Source of the DNA: Candidatus Latescibacterota bacterium
GTDB lineage: Bacteria; Latescibacterota; UBA2968; UBA8231
Assembly (NCBI GenBank): GCA_965205655.1
Contig: CBDBIJ010000038.1
Location: 1-33,197, forward strand
Direction of reading: 5' to 3'
Length of the DNA stretch: 33,197 nucleotides
Below the pieces are notes generated by a model, which ran no database searches, was not told the DNA's origin, and saw only the letters and a list, made by a program, of their open reading frames with translations. The translations under genes and the position numbers were made by a program. Below are positions 84-33,197 of the stretch, piece after piece; the first letter of the stretch is position 1; each line of letters starts with the position of its first letter.

Positions 84-3000
84 TCAGACGACTTCCCGCA
101 TGATGTTCCTGGCCTTCTCGAGGCGCTCCTGCTCGTCGGTGGCGCGGATGAAGGCCTCGACGACGAGCGCGTCGGCCACCTTGAACTCGAGCTGGGCCGA
201 GCTCTTCTCCACCAGCCGCTGAATATCGGCCGGTGCCGGTTGAACCTCCTCGGGAAAGATCATGCGGAAGCGAGACTTCTCCAATTGCACCGCCGCCAGA
301 CCGAGCTGGCGCGCCATGATCTTGATCTCCATCAGCGCCAAGAGGGATTTCGTCTGATACGGCATACGGCCGAAGCGATCCTCGAGCTCCTCCTGCACGC
401 CGAGCAGCTCGACGAGACGGTGCGCCTCGGCAAGCCGCTGGTAGAACTCCATCTTCAAGTCGGTGTCGGGGACATAGTCGTCGGGGATGTAGGCGGTGAC
501 GGCGATCTTCATCTCCGGTTCGACGACGTGCTCGACCTTTTCTCCTTTCAATTCCCGAACCGCTTCGTCGAGGAGCCGGCAGTAGAGATCGAATCCCACC
601 GCCGTGATATGGCCGTGTTGCTGGGCGCCGATGATGTTGCCGGCGCCACGGATTTCCATATCGCGCATGGCGATGTTGAACCCGGAGCCCAGGTCGGCGA
701 ACTCCTCGATGGCCTGAAGCCGCCGGCGGGACTTTACGCGTCAGGCGCTTGCCCTTGGGCACCAGCAGATAGGCATAGGCCCTTTCCTTGGAGCGCCCCA
801 CTCGACCGCGAATTTGATAGAGCTGGCCCAACCCCAGCATGTCAGCCCGGTTGACGAGAATCGTATTGACCGAGGGTATGTCGATGCCGGACTCGATGAT
901 CATAGTACTGACGAGACAGTCGTACTTCCGTTCCAGAAAGTCGAGCATGATCTTCTCGAGCTGACGCGAGGGCATCTGGCCGTGGGCCACGGCAAAAACG
1001 GGTCGAGGGAAGGAGCTCTTCGAGGTATTCGGCGAGTCGATAGATGGACTGAATCCGGTTGTGGACGAAGTAAACCTGGCCGCCTCGCTGGACCTCCCGG
1101 ACGATAGCCTCGACGATGCGGCCCTCGTCGAAGGCGAAGATCTCGGTGTGGATGGGGAGTCGGTCCTGCGGCGGCGTGTTGATGACGGACATGTCCCGCG
1201 TTCCCATGAGCGACATGTGCAGGGTGCGCGGGATGGGCGTGGCGGTGAGCGTGACGACGTCCACGAGCCGCTTGAGCTGCTTGATCTGCTCCTTGTGGCG
1301 CACGCCGAAGCGCTGTTCCTCGTCGACGATGAGAAGACCGAGGTCGCGGAAGGTCACATCCTTCGATAAAAGGCGGTGGGTGCCGATGAGGATGTCGACT
1401 TTGCCGGCTTTCGTGTCGCGGGCGACGTCCCGTTGTTCCTTGGGGGTGCGGAAGCGGCTGAGGACCTCGATGCGCACTGGCAGGTTGGCCATGCGCTCGG
1501 TGAAGGTCTGGTGGTGCTGCTGAGCCAGAATGGTTGTCGGCACCAGCATCGCGACCTGCTTGTGATCCGCCACGGCCTTGAACGCCGCCCGCACCGCCAC
1601 CTCCGTTTTTCCGTAACCCACGTCGCCGCAGACGAGGCGGTCCATGGGATGAGGGGCCTCCATGTCCTTCTTGACATCCTCGACGGTCCGCAGCTGGTCG
1701 GGCGTCTCTTGAAAGGGGAAGGCCGCTTCGAGCTCGCGCTGCATTGGCGTGTCTTCGGAAAAGCGAGCCCCCGGCAGCGCCTTGCGCGCGGCGTAGAGCT
1801 GGATGAGCTCGCTCGCCATTTTGAAGATCTCCTCCTTCGTGCGCTCCTTGAGCCTCTCCCAGGCGTTCGAACCGAGCTTGTTGAGAATCGGCGGCTCGCT
1901 TTCGGAACTGGAGTATTTGCGCAACCGGTCGAGCTGTTCGACCGGGATAAAGAGCTTGTCTTTACCCTGATAGGTGACTTCGAGGCAGTCGTGATCTCTG
2001 GCCGAGAGCACGAGGCGCCTGATGCCGCGGTAGCGCCCGATGCCATGATCTTCGTGGACGACGAAGTCTCCCACATGAAGAGCCTCGAAGGTGGAGATCG
2101 GTTTTGCCGCCTTGAAACGACGATAGCGGTAGCGCTGCTTCTGGCGGCTGAAGATCTCGTGATCGTTGAACAGGGCGATGGCGGCTTCGGGAAACACGAA
2201 GCCGCCGGTTCAGGGTACCGAGCCCGAAGGAGGCGACGTCGGACCAGTCGCTGAAAATCTCCTCGAGGCGACTGCTCTGACCCTGGGTCTCCGAGAGGAC
2301 GTGGATCTCGTATCCCTCTTCACTCAGCGCCGCGACTTCGTTTCGCAGGATGCCGAGTTCGCCCTGAACGGCCCCGCGGTTCGCGGGCACCGAAGCGGAT
2401 GGCGCCGTCCAACTCGCCAAGGGGGGCTGGCTGAAGCAGCGTATGCTCCGCAAAGTGGGTCCGCAGCCATGCGGCATCCCGCAGCAGGCGTTCGGGCGGC
2501 AGATAGGTACCACGATCGGCGTGGCGTCGATAATCGCGCCTCGAGGGAGCGACCGACTTCTCGATCTCCGCCTCGAGCTCGTCGAGTTCATCGCAGTAGA
2601 GAATCGGGCCATCGAGGTACTCGAATAGCCCTTTGTCGCGTCCGTAGAGGATCGACATGTAGGTCTCGATCCCCTCGAGAGAGGTGCCGAGTTCGATCTG
2701 GTCCTTCAACGCCGCAAGCTCGACCTTCGCTTCGGCCTCGACGGGTTCGATCGCCCGCATGTAGTCTTCGGCTGAATTCGGGGGTGAGGATAACCTCTCG
2801 GGCCGGCAGAATGCAGGCCTCCTCACAGGCGGTGAGCGAGCGCTGCGTGGAGATGTCGAACTGCCGGATCGAGTCGACTTCGTCACCGAAGAACTCGAGG
2901 CGCAGCGGGTGCTCGACGCCCAGGGGATAGATGTCGACGATACCGCCGCGAACGCTGAATTGGCCGATGCCGTCTACCATCGGCACACGCTCGAAGCCGA

Positions 3001-3493
3001 CGTCAACGAAATGAGAGTTCATCCGGTCGAGGCGATGCTCCTGACCGACCCGGCAATGAAAGGTGCCCAGCTCGAGGGCGTGCGGTGGGATGAGGGGCGA
3101 GATCAGGGCCGCAGCCGGAGTCACGACGATGGTGGGGTCGCGGCGGGCGAGTTGGGCCGCCGCCTCGATCCGCAGCCCGGTGATCTCCTGGGACGGCGAC
3201 CGACCTTCATACACGTCCATATCCCAGGCGGGGAAATAGCGCACGATCTCATCGCCGGCGATGGCCTGCAAATCGTCGCGCCACTGTTCGGCGCGGTCTT
3301 CATCGGCGGCGATGACGAGCAGGGGCCGGGGGATGGAGCGCTGAACCTTCGTAAGCAGAAAGGCGGCAAGGGTCGAGGGCAGGGCGTGCAGCAACACCTG
3401 CCGCTCCCCACTGTTCAGGCGGGCGACGATGTCTCTGAAACTCGCCGTCGCGGCCGTCTTGCGGGCGATGTGATCGAGCGACGGAGCGGTCAT
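84..3493 (-). CDS. mfd: Transcription-repair coupling factor Mfd, split by 5 apparent +1 frameshifts (~2772, ~2375, ~2205, ~995, ~730)
   Basis: UvrB-homology [28 protein letters not shown], Walker [37 protein letters not shown] motif [12 protein letters not shown] and the TRCF C-terminal domain are spread collinearly over six ORFs. Confidence 0.95.
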
Positions 3494-3995: not shown

Positions 3996-5242
3996 GGTAT
4001 ATTCAATCGGTCAATGCAACATTCTCCCCACTAATCTAATCATAGGAGATGTTGCACATGGCTCAAATGGGACGACCAGGATTGTCCGCGTCACAGAAGT
4101 TGGAGGTATGGCGTCGATGGAAGAGCGGCCAGTCGCATAGCGATATTGGTCGGGCGCTCGGGAAGCATCCGGCGTCGATTCATGGTGTCATCACCGCCAA
4201 TGGGGGCATCGTACCAATGCCGCGTCGACGCTCTCGATGGGCTCTTGGCTGGGAAGAGCGTGAAGAGATCTCTCGAGGTATCGCTGCGGGAAAATCGATA
4301 CGAATAATTGCGGCCGCTGTTGAGCGTGCACCCTCGACGGTTAGCCGAGAGATTGCCCGCAATGGCGGGCGGCAAAGGTACCGAGCAAACGTCGCCGACC
4401 AAGCAGCCTGGACGCGCGCCAGCCGGCCGAAATGCTGCCGACTCGCATCCAATCTTCGTTTGCGGCGAGTCGTGGCGGACAAGCTACGCCTGAAGTGGTC
4501 ACCTGAGCAGATATCGGGATGGCTGAAGCGGGAGTATGCGCTTTTAGGAAATATGCAGATATCCCACGAAACGATCTATCGAACTCTCTTCATCCAGGCA
4601 CGCGGGGCACTCAACAAGGACCTCATTGCGCATCTGCGGACGCGAAGGATGATGCGGCGATCCAAGAAGGCAAGCACACGCGATCAGCCGAGAGGCCGGA
4701 TCGTCGACGCCGTATCCATCAGCGAGCGGCCTGCCGAGATCGAGGACCGCGCCGTTCCCGGCCACTGGGAGGGAGACTTGATCTCGGGGTCGAACAACAC
4801 GCACATCGCCACGTTGGTGGAGCGGCAGTCTCGGTTCACGATGCTCGTGAAGCTCAACGGCAAAGACACCGAGACCGTTGTCAGAGCGCTGATCAGCCAG
4901 GTGAAACGACTCCCCTCCGCGGTGCGGTTGTCCCTTACCTGGGATCGAGGAATGGAGCTAGCTCGGCACAAGGAGTTCTCGATCGCAACTGACGTCGAGG
5001 TGTATTTCTGTGATCCTCAGAGTCCCTGGCAACGAGGCACAAATGAGAACACGAATCGCCTTCTTCGACAGTACTTCCCGAGGAAGACCGATCTGTCGCT
5101 ATTCTCCCAAGCCGACCTGCACAGAGTCGCTCTTCAACTGAACCAGCGCCCGCGGAAGACGTTGGGGTTCGTTTCACCCGCAGAACGCTTCAATGAAGGT
5201 GTTGCGTTGACGAAGGTGTTGCATTGACTGGTTGAACTCGCG
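3996..5242 (+). mobile_element. IS30-family insertion sequence (~1.25 kb)
   Basis: Imperfect 26-bp terminal inverted repeats GGTATATTCAATCGGTCAATGCAACA (3996-4021) and TGTTGCATTGACTGGTTGAACTCGCG (5217-5242). A 2-bp GC direct repeat flanks it (3994-3995 and 5243-5244). It holds a single transposase. Confidence 0.9.
4058..5227 (+). CDS. IS30-family DDE transposase
   Basis: Two N-terminal HTH segments (RAPSTVSREI), WSPEQIS, ISHETIY, GHWEGDL, TWDRGME and SPWQRGTNENTNRLLRQYFP. AGGAG RBS at 4044; start is ATG 4049 or 4058. Confidence 0.95.
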   Translation: MAQMGRPGLSASQKLEVWRRWKSGQSHSDIGRALGKHPASIHGVITANGGIVPMPRRRSRWALGWEEREEISRGIAAGKSIRIIAAAVERAPSTVSREIARNGGRQRYRANVADQAAWTRASRPKCCRLASNLRLRRVVADKLRLKWSPEQISGWLKREYALLGNMQISHETIYRTLFIQARGALNKDLIAHLRTRRMMRRSKKASTRDQPRGRIVDAVSISERPAEIEDRAVPGHWEGDLISGSNNTHIATLVERQSRFTMLVKLNGKDTETVVRALISQVKRLPSAVRLSLTWDRGMELARHKEFSIATDVEVYFCDPQSPWQRGTNENTNRLLRQYFPRKTDLSLFSQADLHRVALQLNQRPRKTLGFVSPAERFNEGVALTKVLH

Positions 5243-7582: not shown

Positions 7583-7658
7583 TGGTGGAGCTGAGGGGAA
7601 TCGAACCCCTGACCTCCTGAATGCCATTCAGGCGCTCTCCCAACTGAGCTACAGCCCC
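7583..7658 (-). tRNA. tRNA-Ala(GGC)
   Basis: GGGGCTGTAGCTCAGTTGGGAGAGCGCCTGAATGGCATTCAGGAGGTCAGGGGTTCGATTCCCCTCAGCTCCACCA: 76 nt, G3:U70 pair, anticodon GGC, encoded CCA. Confidence 0.98.
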
Positions 7659-29186: not shown

Positions 29187-29690
29187 TCACGGCTTCTTCT
29201 CGTCGGGGTCTCTTGAGGTCACGACCGCGTCGAGCACGCCGTTGACAAAGGCATAGGATTGCTGGCCGCCGTACGCCTTGGCCAGCTCGACAGCCTCGTC
29301 GATGGTGACGCTCGGTGGGATGTCCGCGAAGTAGAGAATCTCAGTCAGGGCGAGTCGAATGATGATACCGTCGATGCGAGCGATGCGATCCGTGCGCCAG
29401 TGGGCCGCTGTCGAGTCGATGATGGAGTCTAGCTCGACGGCGCGCTCCAGGGCTGTGCGGACGAGCTGCTCGGCGAATTCGTAGGTTAGCCCGGAAACGC
29501 CATGACGACAGGCGAGCTCGGACAGGGCGCTATCGACGTCGCCGGGGGAGCAGGTCTCCCAGTAGAGGGCCTGGACGGCGAGCTGACGGGCCCCTCGCCG
29601 CGTGTTCGGGAGAGCGGGCTCGGCCCACGTGAGCTCCTCGACCTCGAGCTCGCTGTGGCTGCCGGCGGGCTCGGCCTCATCTGTTTCCAT
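29187..29690 (-). CDS. nusB: Transcription antitermination factor NusB
   Basis: RRGARQLAVQALY, W..DRIARID, IDEAVELAK and FVNGVLD. Confidence 0.95.
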   Translation of the reverse strand: METDEAEPAGSHSELEVEELTWAEPALPNTRRGARQLAVQALYWETCSPGDVDSALSELACRHGVSGLTYEFAEQLVRTALERAVELDSIIDSTAAHWRTDRIARIDGIIIRLALTEILYFADIPPSVTIDEAVELAKAYGGQQSYAFVNGVLDAVVTSRDPDEKKP

Positions 29691-29707
29691 GACGAGGATC
29701 AGCCGGG

Positions 29708-30973
29708 TCAGCCGCTCTGCGCTGTGCCGCTCGAGTCGGGGGCGTCGAACAAGGTGACGTGGCCCATCTTGTCCCGCTTCGTTTTCAGGTAGCGGATGTT
29801 GTGGGGGTTGGGCGAGGTGGCGATGGGGACCTGCTCGACGACGGAGAGCCCGTACCCTTCGAGGCCCACTCGTTTCTTCGGGTTGTTGGTCAAGAAGCGC
29901 ACCCGGCGCAAACCGAGATCGTGCAACACCTGGGCTCCGACTCCGTAATCGCGGGCATCGGAGGGAAGGCCGAGGGCGTGGTTGGCCTCGACCGTGTCCA
30001 AACCCCGCTCCTGCTGCAGCTCATAGGCCTTGAGCTTGTGGATGACTCCGATGCCTCGGCCCTCGTGATGCTGGATGTAGACGATGGCGCCCCGTCCCGC
30101 GTCGGCGATCATCTCGAACGAGCGCTCGAGCTGTTCGCCGCAGTCGCACAAGTGGGATCCCAAAGCGTCGCCGGTGACACAGCACGAATGCATGCGCACG
30201 AGGGTATCCTCTCCATCGGTGACGTCGCCCATGACGAGGGCGATGTAGGGATTGCCGTCGACGAGGCTGCGGTAGGCGTAGGCCGTGAAGTCCCCGTACC
30301 GGGTCGGCATCTTCGCCTTCGCCTCGAGTTCAATGAGTTTCTCAGTGCGGCGCCGGTAGGCGATGAGGTCGCGAATGGAGGCGATCTTAAAGCCGTGGCG
30401 TTCGGCAAAGGTGAGCAGGTACGGCGTCGCCGCCAGGCGACCGTCCTCGTCGAGAATGGCGGCGATGAGCGCAACTGGTTGAAAGTCCGCCATCCGCACG
30501 AGGTCGACGGAGGCTTCGGTGTGGCCGGCGCGCTTGAGTACGCCTCCTGGTTGCGCCAGCAGCGGCGTGATGTGGCCGGGCTGAACGAAATCGGCTGCCG
30601 AACTGTGAGGGTCGACGAGCTTCTCGACAGTGAGGGCGCGATCGTGAGCAGAAACGCCGGTGCCTTCGACGTCAGCGGCATTGATAGAGACCATGACCGC
30701 GGCACTTCTTGGTCCGGCTGAGCCTGGAAGCGGGACATCGAGGCCGAGCGCCTCGAGCCGCTCCACGGCGACGGGCGCGTAGAGCGGTCCCCCTGCCTGC
30801 CTGGTCATGAAGTGAATGGCCTCGGAGTCCGCAGCCTGGGCGGCCATAGTGAGTTCGCCCTCTCCGACAAACTCGGTTCCGTCCACATCGACGGCGCGCT
30901 CGTCCACAAGGACGACCTTCTTGCCGGCTTGCAGATCCTCTACGACTTCCTCGACGGTGCTGAAATCAGACAT
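29708..30973 (-). CDS. ribBA: RibBA-type fusion: degenerate DHBP synthase domain plus intact GTP cyclohydrolase II
   Basis: GCH II motifs RMHSCCVTGD...CDCG, EGRGIG, RDYGVGAQ and TNNPKK. The N-domain keeps TGVSAHDRA, PGH and RAGHTE but lacks RENEGD, GLIC and ICEI. Confidence 0.93.
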   Translation of the reverse strand: MSDFSTVEEVVEDLQAGKKVVLVDERAVDVDGTEFVGEGELTMAAQAADSEAIHFMTRQAGGPLYAPVAVERLEALGLDVPLPGSAGPRSAAVMVSINAADVEGTGVSAHDRALTVEKLVDPHSSAADFVQPGHITPLLAQPGGVLKRAGHTEASVDLVRMADFQPVALIAAILDEDGRLAATPYLLTFAERHGFKIASIRDLIAYRRRTEKLIELEAKAKMPTRYGDFTAYAYRSLVDGNPYIALVMGDVTDGEDTLVRMHSCCVTGDALGSHLCDCGEQLERSFEMIADAGRGAIVYIQHHEGRGIGVIHKLKAYELQQERGLDTVEANHALGLPSDARDYGVGAQVLHDLGLRRVRFLTNNPKKRVGLEGYGLSVVEQVPIATSPNPHNIRYLKTKRDKMGHVTLFDAPDSSGTAQSG

Positions 30974-31559
30974 CGGTGCTCAACATGCGCTCGACATAGC
31001 GGGCAATGAGGTCCACTTCGACGTTGACACGGGCCCCCGCGTCAACTTGCGAAAGATTCGTATGTTGTAATGTATGCGGGGTGATAGCGACGGTAAAGGC
31101 AGCGCTGTTCACGTCCACGACCGTGAGTGAAATGCCATTGACGGCGATGGATCCCTTGCTGGCGATGTAGCGTTGCAGGAGTGCCGGAGGCGCTACTTCG
31201 AGGATGGTGCTCTCTCCGTTTCGATCGAAACGCGTCACCTCGCCGACGCCGTCGACATGACCGGTGACGAGGTGTCCCCCGATCCGATCCTCCAGTCTGA
31301 GCGAGCGCTCAAGATTGACGGAATCTCCCGGTTTCCTTTCGCCGAGCGTCGTGCGCGCCAGGGTCTCCTCTACTGACTCCACCACAAAACCACCGGCCGG
31401 CAGCTCCACGACCGTGTGGCAGGCGCCATCGATGTCGATGCTGTCGCCGACGCAGATGCTCTCGAGCACGCGCCGGGCCTCGATCAGCAGTCGTTGGCAG
31501 TCTTTCCCCCTGCGGATGTCGCCCACCCGCCCCACTTCCTCGATCAGTCCTGTGAACAT
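30966..31559 (-). CDS. ribE: Riboflavin synthase (alpha chain)
   Basis: MFTGLIEE, GDSI..GAC, VNLER, GGHLVTGHVDG and KGSIAVNGISLT. Confidence 0.96.
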   Translation of the reverse strand: MFTGLIEEVGRVGDIRRGKDCQRLLIEARRVLESICVGDSIDIDGACHTVVELPAGGFVVESVEETLARTTLGERKPGDSVNLERSLRLEDRIGGHLVTGHVDGVGEVTRFDRNGESTILEVAPPALLQRYIASKGSIAVNGISLTVVDVNSAAFTVAITPHTLQHTNLSQVDAGARVNVEVDLIARYVERMLSTDV

Positions 31560-32648
31560 GCGTACCTCACGTCGGCGGTGTAGAGCAGGTCGTCTCCCAG
31601 GCGCCGGGTGCGGACCTGCTCGAGCGTAACGGCATCGGCCAGCTCCCGCGTGTCGAGCTCGCCGATGGCCGGGATGCCCTCGCCGATGATGCGCGGAGCC
31701 AGGTAGATCATAACCCGATCGACGACCTGGTCCTTCAGGGCCGAGGCCGCGAGCCGGCCACCGCCCTCGACGAGCACGCTGGTCATGCCTCTCCTGCCAG
31801 CCTCGTCCATGACGCTGCGAAGATCGAGGCGACCGTCCTCGTCCGGGAAAGTCCACACCTCGACGCCGGCGTCGAGGAAGTCACCTCTGCGCTGCGGCGG
31901 CGACGACTCGGAGGTGGCCAGGATCGCTCCCGAATGCTGGAACACTCGCGCCTGCGGAGTTAGGCGAAGCCGACCATCCACCACCACGGGCCGCGGGCCG
32001 GGGTGGCGGCTTCCGGAGCCCAGGCGAACAGTCAATTGCGGGTCGTCCACCTCGACGGTGGAGGCACCAACGAAAACGGCGTCGACGCGGCGGCGCCACT
32101 GGTGGACATGTCTTCGCGCCTTTTCGCCGGTGATCCAGCGCGGACTGCCCCCCGCGGGTGGCGATGCGCCCATCCAGACTCTGACCCAGCTTGAGGATGA
32201 CGAGCGGCCGACCGGTGCGGCGATGCTTGAGATAGGGCGCGTTGAGGCGCTCGGCGGAATCCCGCAGCAGTCCCACGTCAACTAGCAACCCCGCCTCTCT
32301 CAGTGTCGAGATTCCGCCACCGCTCACCTCCGGGTCGGGGTCTTCCATGGCACAAACGACGCGGCGTATCCCGGCCTCGATCACGGCATCGGTGCAGGGG
32401 GGTGTGCGGCCCTGATGGGGGCACGGTTCGAGGGTCACGAACATCGTCGCCATCTGGCTCGCCAGACCTGCTGCGGCCAATGCGTGGACTTCGGCGTGAG
32501 GTCCTCCCAGCTGCAGATGGGCTCCCTCCCCGACGACGCGGTCGTCGCTGACGACGACGGCGCCGACAAGTGGGTTCGGGCTCACTCGGCCGAGCCCGCG
32601 GCGCGCGAGACGCAGCGCCCGCCGCATGTGATCACCATCTTGTAGCAT
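31544..32648 (-). CDS. ribD: Bifunctional deaminase/reductase RibD (+1 frameshift ~32140)
   Basis: PNPLVG, HAE, TLEPCPHQGRTPPC and SLDGRIAT, then WITG, DDPQLTVR and VEGG in the next frame. Confidence 0.95.
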
Positions 32649-32867: not shown

Positions 32868-33197
32868 ATGTACCAATCCTACTGGGGACTACAGGAAAAG
32901 CCATTCGAGAACACGCCGGATCCGCGATTCTTCTTCCAGGATCCGGATACGAGCGAGGTCTTCACCCGCCTGCTCTATACGCTTCAGAGCAACAGGGGGG
33001 CCGCCCTGCTGACCGGCGGGTCCGGCTGCGGCAAGAGACGCTCGTAACGCGGGCGCTGTTACAGGAGCTCGACCCCGATAAGACGGAAGTCGCGCTGCTG
33101 CCGACACCGAGCCAGACGCCGGACGAGTTTCTGCGCGAGGTCCTCTATGAGCTCGGCGAGGACAGCCGGCCGGAGGATCGCACCCAGGCCGTTCACC
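32868..33197 (+). CDS. ExeA/GspA-like AAA ATPase, 5' part (partial; frameshift ~33036)
   Basis: MYQSYWGLQEKPFENTPDPRFFF and Walker A GGSGCGK. Removing a duplicated AG restores GKTLVTRALLQELD. Confidence 0.85.

Follow-up and report, generated by a model that had tools for sequence, protein, structure and literature searches.

Cys67 and Glu174 are catalytic residues of canonical RibB, the DHBP synthase of riboflavin biosynthesis, and E. coli RibB mutants at Cys67, Glu174, Asp42, Arg37, and Glu38 lose activity. All of these positions follow E. coli numbering, which is used below unless the variant is specified. The metal ligands of the canonical enzyme are described as Glu38 and His153 (PMC9305975). 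The substrate phosphate is described as resting on Arg37, Arg150, His153, and Thr154, with His136 and Asp42 placed on substrate oxygens (PMC12268802; numbering converted to that of E. coli). In RibBA (PRK09311/NF006803; M. tuberculosis Rv1415, PDB 4I14) a RibB domain precedes a GTP cyclohydrolase II (GCH II) domain, and several relatives of this arrangement with a departure in one half have been described. Arabidopsis RIBA3 was reported to have GCH II but no DHBP synthase activity, whether tested in vitro or by complementation of E. coli (PMC3509567). RibBX from Shewanella, Aeromonas, and Acinetobacter (PDB 6MNZ) is a RibBA-derived fusion in which one half is likewise non-canonical. As the first-pass annotation of the present locus had stated, it is the opposite half that is affected in RibBX: its GCH II half lacks zinc ligands and its RibB half is canonical, the reverse of what is seen at the present locus. 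A separate ribA is reported to supply the lost step (PMC10012899). The RibB fold can also be diverted, since E. coli ribB mutants are reported to bypass dxs (PMC3424233, PMC8227265, PMC8791446).

The locus described here lies in the window, the whole stretch of 33,197 nucleotides of a Candidatus Latescibacterota genome that was analysed (Table 1). Its gene order is ribD-ribE-ribBA-nusB. The encoded protein resembles RibBA in domain order, fold, phosphate and metal platform, and GCH II catalytic set, as well as in its place within the operon pattern ribD-ribE-ribBA-(ribH)-nusB. It departs from RibBA through a 7-residue insertion in the lid, the absence of Cys67 and Glu174, a Glu in place of Asp42, and a displaced Arg37. 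Pfam places PF00926 at residues 8-206 and PF00925 at residues 218-383. The RibB domain scores 148.7 with TIGR00506, below the cut-off of 177.45, and the whole protein scores 508 with NF006803, for which the cut-off is 569. This domain is the sole PF00926 match in the genome, an 84% complete assembly. The closest named loci are in Ca. Latescibacterota and Gemmatimonadota assemblies, and a literature search, which covered few subscription papers, found no published description of the variant in Latescibacterota.

Table 1. Features of the riboflavin operon in the window (residue numbers are those of the variant unless E. coli is named).
Feature	Position	Strand	Evidence or remark
nusB, downstream operon neighbour	29187..29690	(-)	PF01029
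17-base ribBA-nusB gap, place of ribH in relatives	29691..29707	(-)	contigs of runs X1 and X2 span the junction
ribBA ORF	29708-30973	(-)	open, 421 aa
GTP cyclohydrolase II domain, ribBA residues 209-421	29708..30349	(-)	TIGR00505; residues invariant in 37/37
Remodelled RibB (DHBP synthase-fold) domain, ribBA residues 1-208	30350..30973	(-)	PF00926 E 1.6e-56, alignments, AlphaFold2 model
RAGHTE motif (148-153), phosphate and metal site (E. coli Arg150, His153, Thr154)	30515..30532	(-)	
Lid loop 2, family-specific Pro88-Arg89-(Gly/Ser)90	30704..30712	(-)	counts across 68 family genomes
Lid loop 1 with 7-residue insertion (Asp24-Glu40)	30854..30904	(-)	predicted beta-hairpin 26-28/34-36
ribE, riboflavin synthase alpha chain	30966..31559	(-)	PF00677; stop overlaps ribBA start by 8 bases
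ribD, deaminase/reductase	31544..32648	(-)	PF00383 and PF01872

Alignment to M. tuberculosis RibBA (4I14) and E. coli RibB located the replacements. Asp42 corresponds to Glu40 of the variant, Cys67 to Tyr65, Glu174 to Ala172, Thr96 to Met94, and Glu100 to Asn98. Moreover, MAR reads LAA, which amounts to Arg184 becoming Ala182, and the insertion falls in the DEDRENEGD loop. Retained are Arg150, His153, and Thr154 (148, 151, and 152 in the variant), His136 (134 in the variant), and Gly108, Ser110, Asp113, and Arg114 (Arg112 in the variant). Each motif change listed in the first-pass annotation, including the lost Cys and Glu and the change of MAR to LAA, could be seen in these alignments, and the phosphate-site residues of RAGHTE, TGVSAHDRA, and PGH are kept, as it had said. 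Its statement that R-E-N was lost needs dividing. In the lid motif Arg37-Glu38-x-Glu40-Gly-Asp42, Arg37 is absent in either alignment register and E. coli Glu40 is kept, but the loss of Glu38 is not clear: its counterpart is Asp29 in the MAFFT register (acidic in 30/37 genomes) and Val36 in the other. In variant numbering, lid loop 1 bears Arg26, Asp29, Asp31, Glu34, Glu38, and Glu40. An AlphaFold2 model gave a confident RibB fold for the domain (pLDDT 91), in which the insertion is modelled as a hairpin (pLDDT about 80). Foldseek returned strong matches to RibB structures only (TM 0.8-0.89), which bears out the earlier view that the fold is retained. A protein atlas search gave RibB clusters only.

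The unusual motifs are not a product of assembly. Contig pieces from three of four public runs, covering all or most of the domain, differ from positions 30350-30973 at 0, 4, and 1 places, and the remaining run has short pieces only over this domain. Strain-level substitutions in ribBA number 7, of which 5 are synonymous. The run contigs reproduce the sequence, whose open frame had been noted before, and together with the family-wide occurrence of the variant they exclude an assembly error. An assembly error does account for the apparent ribD frameshift at 32142, where the extra base is absent in 4/4 runs. Genome-specific decay of the riboflavin operon was therefore rejected, the frameshift being spurious and the variant family-wide. 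A 2-base difference at 33034, in an ATPase-like gene at the contig end, occurs in 2/4 runs.

Further genomic analysis covered 37 genomes of one family and then 31 more, giving 68. The variant was found in 68/68 of these and in 0/24 aligned genomes of three sister families, all of which are canonical. Cys67, Glu174, Asp42, Arg37, and Glu38 are invariant in the 24 sister-family enzymes. Conversely, Cys67 or Glu174 occurs in 0/37 family proteins, one of which has Asp at position 174. RibB scores are 290-304 bits in 53 sister-family genomes and 190-218 among the family matches listed (9 further ones are lower), and the 8 loci read in further families of this phylum appear canonical. In a quick tree the variant forms one clade with support of 99 and a long stem. 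A protein search yielded 119 closely related clusters of the variant type together with one intermediate, P0119. This RibBA has the canonical lid and Cys, a Gly at Glu174, and already the changes seen in the family's GCH II.

Codon models gave a dN/dS of 0.059 for the variant domain and 0.055 for the canonical outgroup domains, and those within-genus pairs that are not saturated gave 0.03-0.26. The domain is under constraint, as had been proposed, and its orthologues show no unconstrained decay; these comparisons point to a history of change followed by constraint. In variant numbering, Arg148, Gly150, His151, Thr152, and Glu153 are invariant in 68/68 genomes, and the surface lid residues and the whole phosphate and metal site are conserved across 18 genera. 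The full set of Arg114, His136, Arg150, His153, and Thr154 is kept in 63/68 family genomes. His134 of the variant was lost in four genomes that bear ribB2, a paralogue described below, and in one that lacks it (G016).

The GCH II half has kept its catalytic residues. The Zn ligands C265, C276, and C278 are intact, as are R341 (Arg128), D339, and Y317, all of them invariant in 37/37 family genomes. In other words, ligands of the CX2GX7CXC-type zinc motif described for GCH II (PMC10366380), Arg128, Asp126, and Tyr105 are present throughout. The TIGR00505 score of 221.5 exceeds the cut-off of 205.85, and codon models gave a dN/dS of 0.040 for the family's GCH II. To judge from its residue set, and from its being the only PF00925 match in this genome, the half is probably active. 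Family-wide changes are found in 37/37: Glu53 to Gly, Cys, or Ala; Arg64 to Leu; and Gln91 to His. Among 136 other clusters Glu53 is variable (Glu in 90) and Arg64 to Leu is rare (1).

The first-pass annotation had described a RibB pseudo-enzyme fused to an active GCH II, the mirror image of RibBX. Among the best 149 other 50%-cluster representatives of RibBA, 131 have most of the N-domain, and 118 of those have intact GCH II zinc ligands and Arg128. The RibB lid motif is missing from 32/118, so mirror images of RibBX are common. With RIBA3 already assayed (PMC3509567), the arrangement of a dead RibB and a live GCH II is known and is not supported as a novelty; it is the genomic context that is new. 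Even so, the full Arg114, His136, Arg150, His153, and Thr154 set survives in only 2/32 degenerate RibBA, one of which is a plant protein, P0131.

RIBA3 is the nearest parallel in kind, an intact GCH II fused to a RibB domain whose essential residues are exchanged and which is reported as long conserved (PMC3509567). P0131, a RIBA3-like protein from Euphorbia, keeps RAGHTE, PGH, and GVSAADR, has lost Arg37, Asp42, Cys67, and Glu174, and has Ala at Glu174 as the variant does; its orthology to Arabidopsis RIBA3 is suggested by this pattern only, and it lies outside the tree. Since P0131 loses the catalytic residues yet keeps the motifs, motif retention does not imply activity. Unlike RIBA3, the variant still has an acidic residue at position 42, and its lid has gained residues; the two are probably of independent origin. 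Moreover, plants have a bifunctional RIBA1 that supplies DHBP, whereas 26/68 family genomes have no other intact RibB.

This last point depends on ribB2, a family-specific standalone RibB paralogue found next to dsbD, with aroA or an enolase-family gene on its other side. Examples are L107:5965-6567 (G030) and the syntenic L105-L124; ribB2 carries a TPRFG motif, sits on a long stem in the tree, and was repeatedly lost. Its lid is canonical and Glu174 is kept, but Cys67 is replaced by His or Leu in 15/15 aligned sequences, two having been left out for an N or a contig end. Across the 68 family genomes ribB2 is present in 42, broken in 2, and absent from 24. Its status changes 8 times on a quick tree of the GCH II domain, and at least 5 of these changes are forced by supported branches. 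In this genome aroA stands directly before dsbD and ribB2 is cleanly deleted. The gene is likewise absent from one- and two-contig assemblies (G008, G015, G017; G010, G013, G120).

The variant is consequently the only intact RibB in the 26 genomes mentioned, and no separate canonical DHBP synthase was found in this genome (84% complete) or in 25 others. Nevertheless, ribH, encoding lumazine synthase, is kept in 25/26 of the genomes without intact ribB2. Both ribE and ribD are in the operon of all 37 mapped family genomes, and dN/dS values of 0.038 for ribH and 0.13 for ribE show strong purifying selection. With ribH under selection in 25 genomes without intact ribB2, DHBP must be supplied somehow.

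The present genome is unusual in this regard. In 36/36 other family genomes ribH comes after ribBA, and the idea that the whole family had lost lumazine synthase along with its RibB chemistry was therefore rejected. Here ribH is missing from the operon, with no PF00885 match in the whole genome (84% complete). L206, the closest metagenomic relative, lacks ribH at the same spot, and the other 16 family loci that reach this point have it. The lumazine synthase of the family is itself altered, with Ser or Thr at Gly84 (B. subtilis numbering), a residue which we take to be at the phosphate site, in 94/94 loci, some genomes being counted twice, against 0/84 others. The ribH at L090:9757-10167 (G030) is an example. 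Matches to ribF (riboflavin kinase/FAD synthetase) in this genome are fragments only (G000:C98:6808-7177), and the gene is possibly frameshifted or misassembled. A search for ECF riboflavin importers in 5 genomes gave no match over the cut-off. F420/Fo synthesis was considered as a sink for the pyrimidine and rejected, as cofG had no match over the cut-off in 5/5 genomes.

The residues that distinguish the family follow the status of ribB2. Arg26, Glu40, and Arg89 of the variant, all family-specific, are jointly kept in 26/26 genomes without intact ribB2 and in 15/42 with it. Arg89 alone occurs in 26/26 genomes lacking intact ribB2, in 16/17 long-loop genomes with ribB2, and in 1/25 genomes of a loop-less clade. 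The 25 genomes of this clade have lost the insertion, Arg26, and Glu40, and 24 of them Arg89; ribB2 is kept in 25/25, and so is RAGHTE. Their dN/dS is 0.101 for RibB and 0.025 for GCH II, a fourfold relaxation in a clade so shallow that its shallowness can inflate the value. In ribB2-less genomes the figures are 0.041 and 0.034 (1.2-fold), and in long-loop genomes with ribB2 the ratio is 1.3-fold. The 27 losses in ribB2-bearing genomes represent 3 independent events, 25 of them being one clade, so that this is a pattern and not a significance test. Replacement of Glu40 by Ala co-occurs with Asp in place of Ala172, the Glu174 position, in P0082, P0086, P0092, and G004. This swap looks like compensation, as if one carboxylate must stay on the active-site floor.

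The reading that we tentatively prefer, while giving it a little less than an even chance, is that the domain is a live DHBP-forming enzyme with a rewired active site. The pseudo-enzyme label of the first-pass annotation was right in that the canonical catalytic residues are gone. It is doubtful as a statement of function, the variant being the only intact RibB in 26/68 genomes with ribH in 25/26 of them. The remodelled domain would still deliver the four-carbon unit of riboflavin, either DHBP or an equivalent that lumazine synthase accepts. Arg26 or Arg89 may bind the phosphate in place of Arg37, one of the acidic residues in the insertion (Asp29, Asp31, or Glu34) may hold the metal in place of Glu38, and Glu40 alone might perform the acid-base work of Asp42 plus Glu174. 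All of these placements are putative. The rate would probably be slow yet sufficient. Functional redundancy with ribB2 would make either one dispensable. In a narrower version, the domain may be confined to the second half-reaction, in which the carbon skeleton is rearranged and formate is released, acting on a 1-deoxy-2,3-diketone 5-phosphate made elsewhere.

Several observations argue for a live enzyme: the hole in the pathway, the turnover of ribB2, the reciprocal dependence of Arg26, Glu40, and Arg89 on ribB2 status, and the Glu40/Asp172 compensation. The phosphate and metal set, far better kept than in other degenerate RibBA, and the Gly84 change of lumazine synthase lend further support. 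Against it, residues invariant in all the sister-family enzymes are gone, and the proposed catalytic capacity is deduced from sequence. Moreover, the loop-less clade keeps RAGHTE and a low dN/dS, and G016 has neither ribB2 nor His134. Amino-acid identity is also lower among variant domains than among canonical ones (0.68 and 0.84, in sets of different depth). In this genome and L206, which lack the operon ribH, the product would have no known enzyme using it.

The ligand-sensing or scaffolding role that had first been suggested for the domain is a live rival, and one we regard as quite possible though doubtful. It holds that the domain is dead for DHBP formation and persists because it binds a ligand, regulates GCH II, or forms the dimer, convergent with RIBA3. 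DHBP would come from ribB2 where present, and elsewhere from a non-homologous enzyme, non-enzymatic chemistry, or uptake. The assay of AtRIBA3, with GCH II but not DHBP synthase activity reported (PMC3509567), provides a precedent, and P0131 has lost and retained nearly the same residues. In RibBX, the X domain is said to regulate its partner (as cited in PMC10012899). Furthermore, no FMN riboswitch was found in the window or in 5/5 genomes tested, which leaves room for control at the protein level, and the GCH II domain changed in step with the RibB domain. However, a dead module requires an extra source of DHBP in the 25 genomes where ribH persists under strong selection. This reading also leaves unexplained why Arg26, Glu40, and Arg89 are lost only where ribB2 is present, and why Glu40 and Asp172 exchange.

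An unlikely alternative is that the family re-plumbed the four-carbon arm of the pathway, so that the domain uses a different substrate and performs only rearrangement and deformylation. The substrate might be, for example, a 1-deoxy-2,3-diketopentose 5-phosphate shared with the Dxs-independent isoprenoid route of the class. Such a change would account for the missing Cys67 and Glu174, for the altered lumazine synthase, and for how this lineage can do without ribH.

Isoprenoid genes of the class were surveyed as well. The MEP pathway without DXP synthase, a condition shared by this class, is an open problem in print for Rhodothermus (PMC11730185). By family, dxs was found in 3/64 genomes of the variant family (f1), 29/29 of f2, 0/3 of f3, and 2/21 of f4, and dxr in 47/49 class-wide. 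In the present genome dxr lies at G000:C147:2532-3650 and ispG at G000:C148:3311-4336. A shunt through a RuBisCO-like protein was rejected as a source of DXP, with none detected in 5/5 genomes. Reversal of LsrF/LsrG was likewise rejected as the origin of the diketone across the class, since one query found an LsrF-like gene in only 10/117 class genomes. The search for the Lsr route gave no match for luxS and a weak one for lsrK (E 1.6e-6, 23%). This genome has an LsrF-like thiolase/aldolase (41% to E. coli LsrF) at G000:C56:33008-33829 and a weak LsrG-like match at C56:7754-8045.

It was also considered that the domain dehydrates ribulose 5-phosphate and releases the 1-deoxy-2,3-diketone, which would be reduced to DXP for the MEP pathway. 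The domain would then be a natural counterpart of the laboratory ribB suppressors, in which DXP synthase is bypassed. We hold this to be improbable. The family's scarcity of dxs beside dxr in 35/37 genomes and ispG in 4/4 tested fits the proposal, as does the missing RuBisCO-like protein, and this genome retains the variant without ribH or ribB2. The diketone is reported as an observed RibB intermediate (PMC9305975), and E. coli ribB G108S and D113G are reported to rescue dxs loss with DXP up about 20-fold (PMC3424233). These DXP-forming suppressors (PDB 7TYE) resemble the variant in being an altered RibB fold in a dxs-less background. In contrast to the variant, they are laboratory single mutants with canonical catalytic residues, and Gly108 of the variant is unchanged. 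Across the family Gly108 is invariant and position 113 is Asp or Glu, so that no suppressor-type change is present. The proposal is weakened further because dxs loss extends beyond the remodelling: f3 and f4 have RibB that scores as canonical, although 22/24 of their genomes lack dxs. The loop-less clade is also without dxs (g13, 0/28), and the DHBP hole would stay unfilled.

A functionless vestige, kept because the fused protein needs the domain to fold or dimerise, seems improbable: degenerate RibB beside intact GCH II is common (the 32/118 clusters above) and dN/dS in the loop-less clade is still 0.10, but the lid surface and the phosphate and metal site are conserved across genera, dN/dS equals that of the canonical enzyme, new family-specific residues have been fixed, and the pathway hole is left unexplained.

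Either outcome would be new. Should the domain prove active, it would be a DHBP synthase that works with neither Cys67 nor Glu174 and has a rebuilt lid. It would then serve as a natural test of which residues the unusual rearrangement requires, and would caution that calling a pseudo-enzyme from its motifs can mislead. Should it prove dead, another source of DHBP is required in at least 25 genomes whose riboflavin pathway is otherwise intact and under selection.

Elsewhere in the window, mfd appears split near 845-3493. An integrase-core transposase with HTH domains lies at 4049-5227 (+), and a tRNA gene at 7586-7658 (-).
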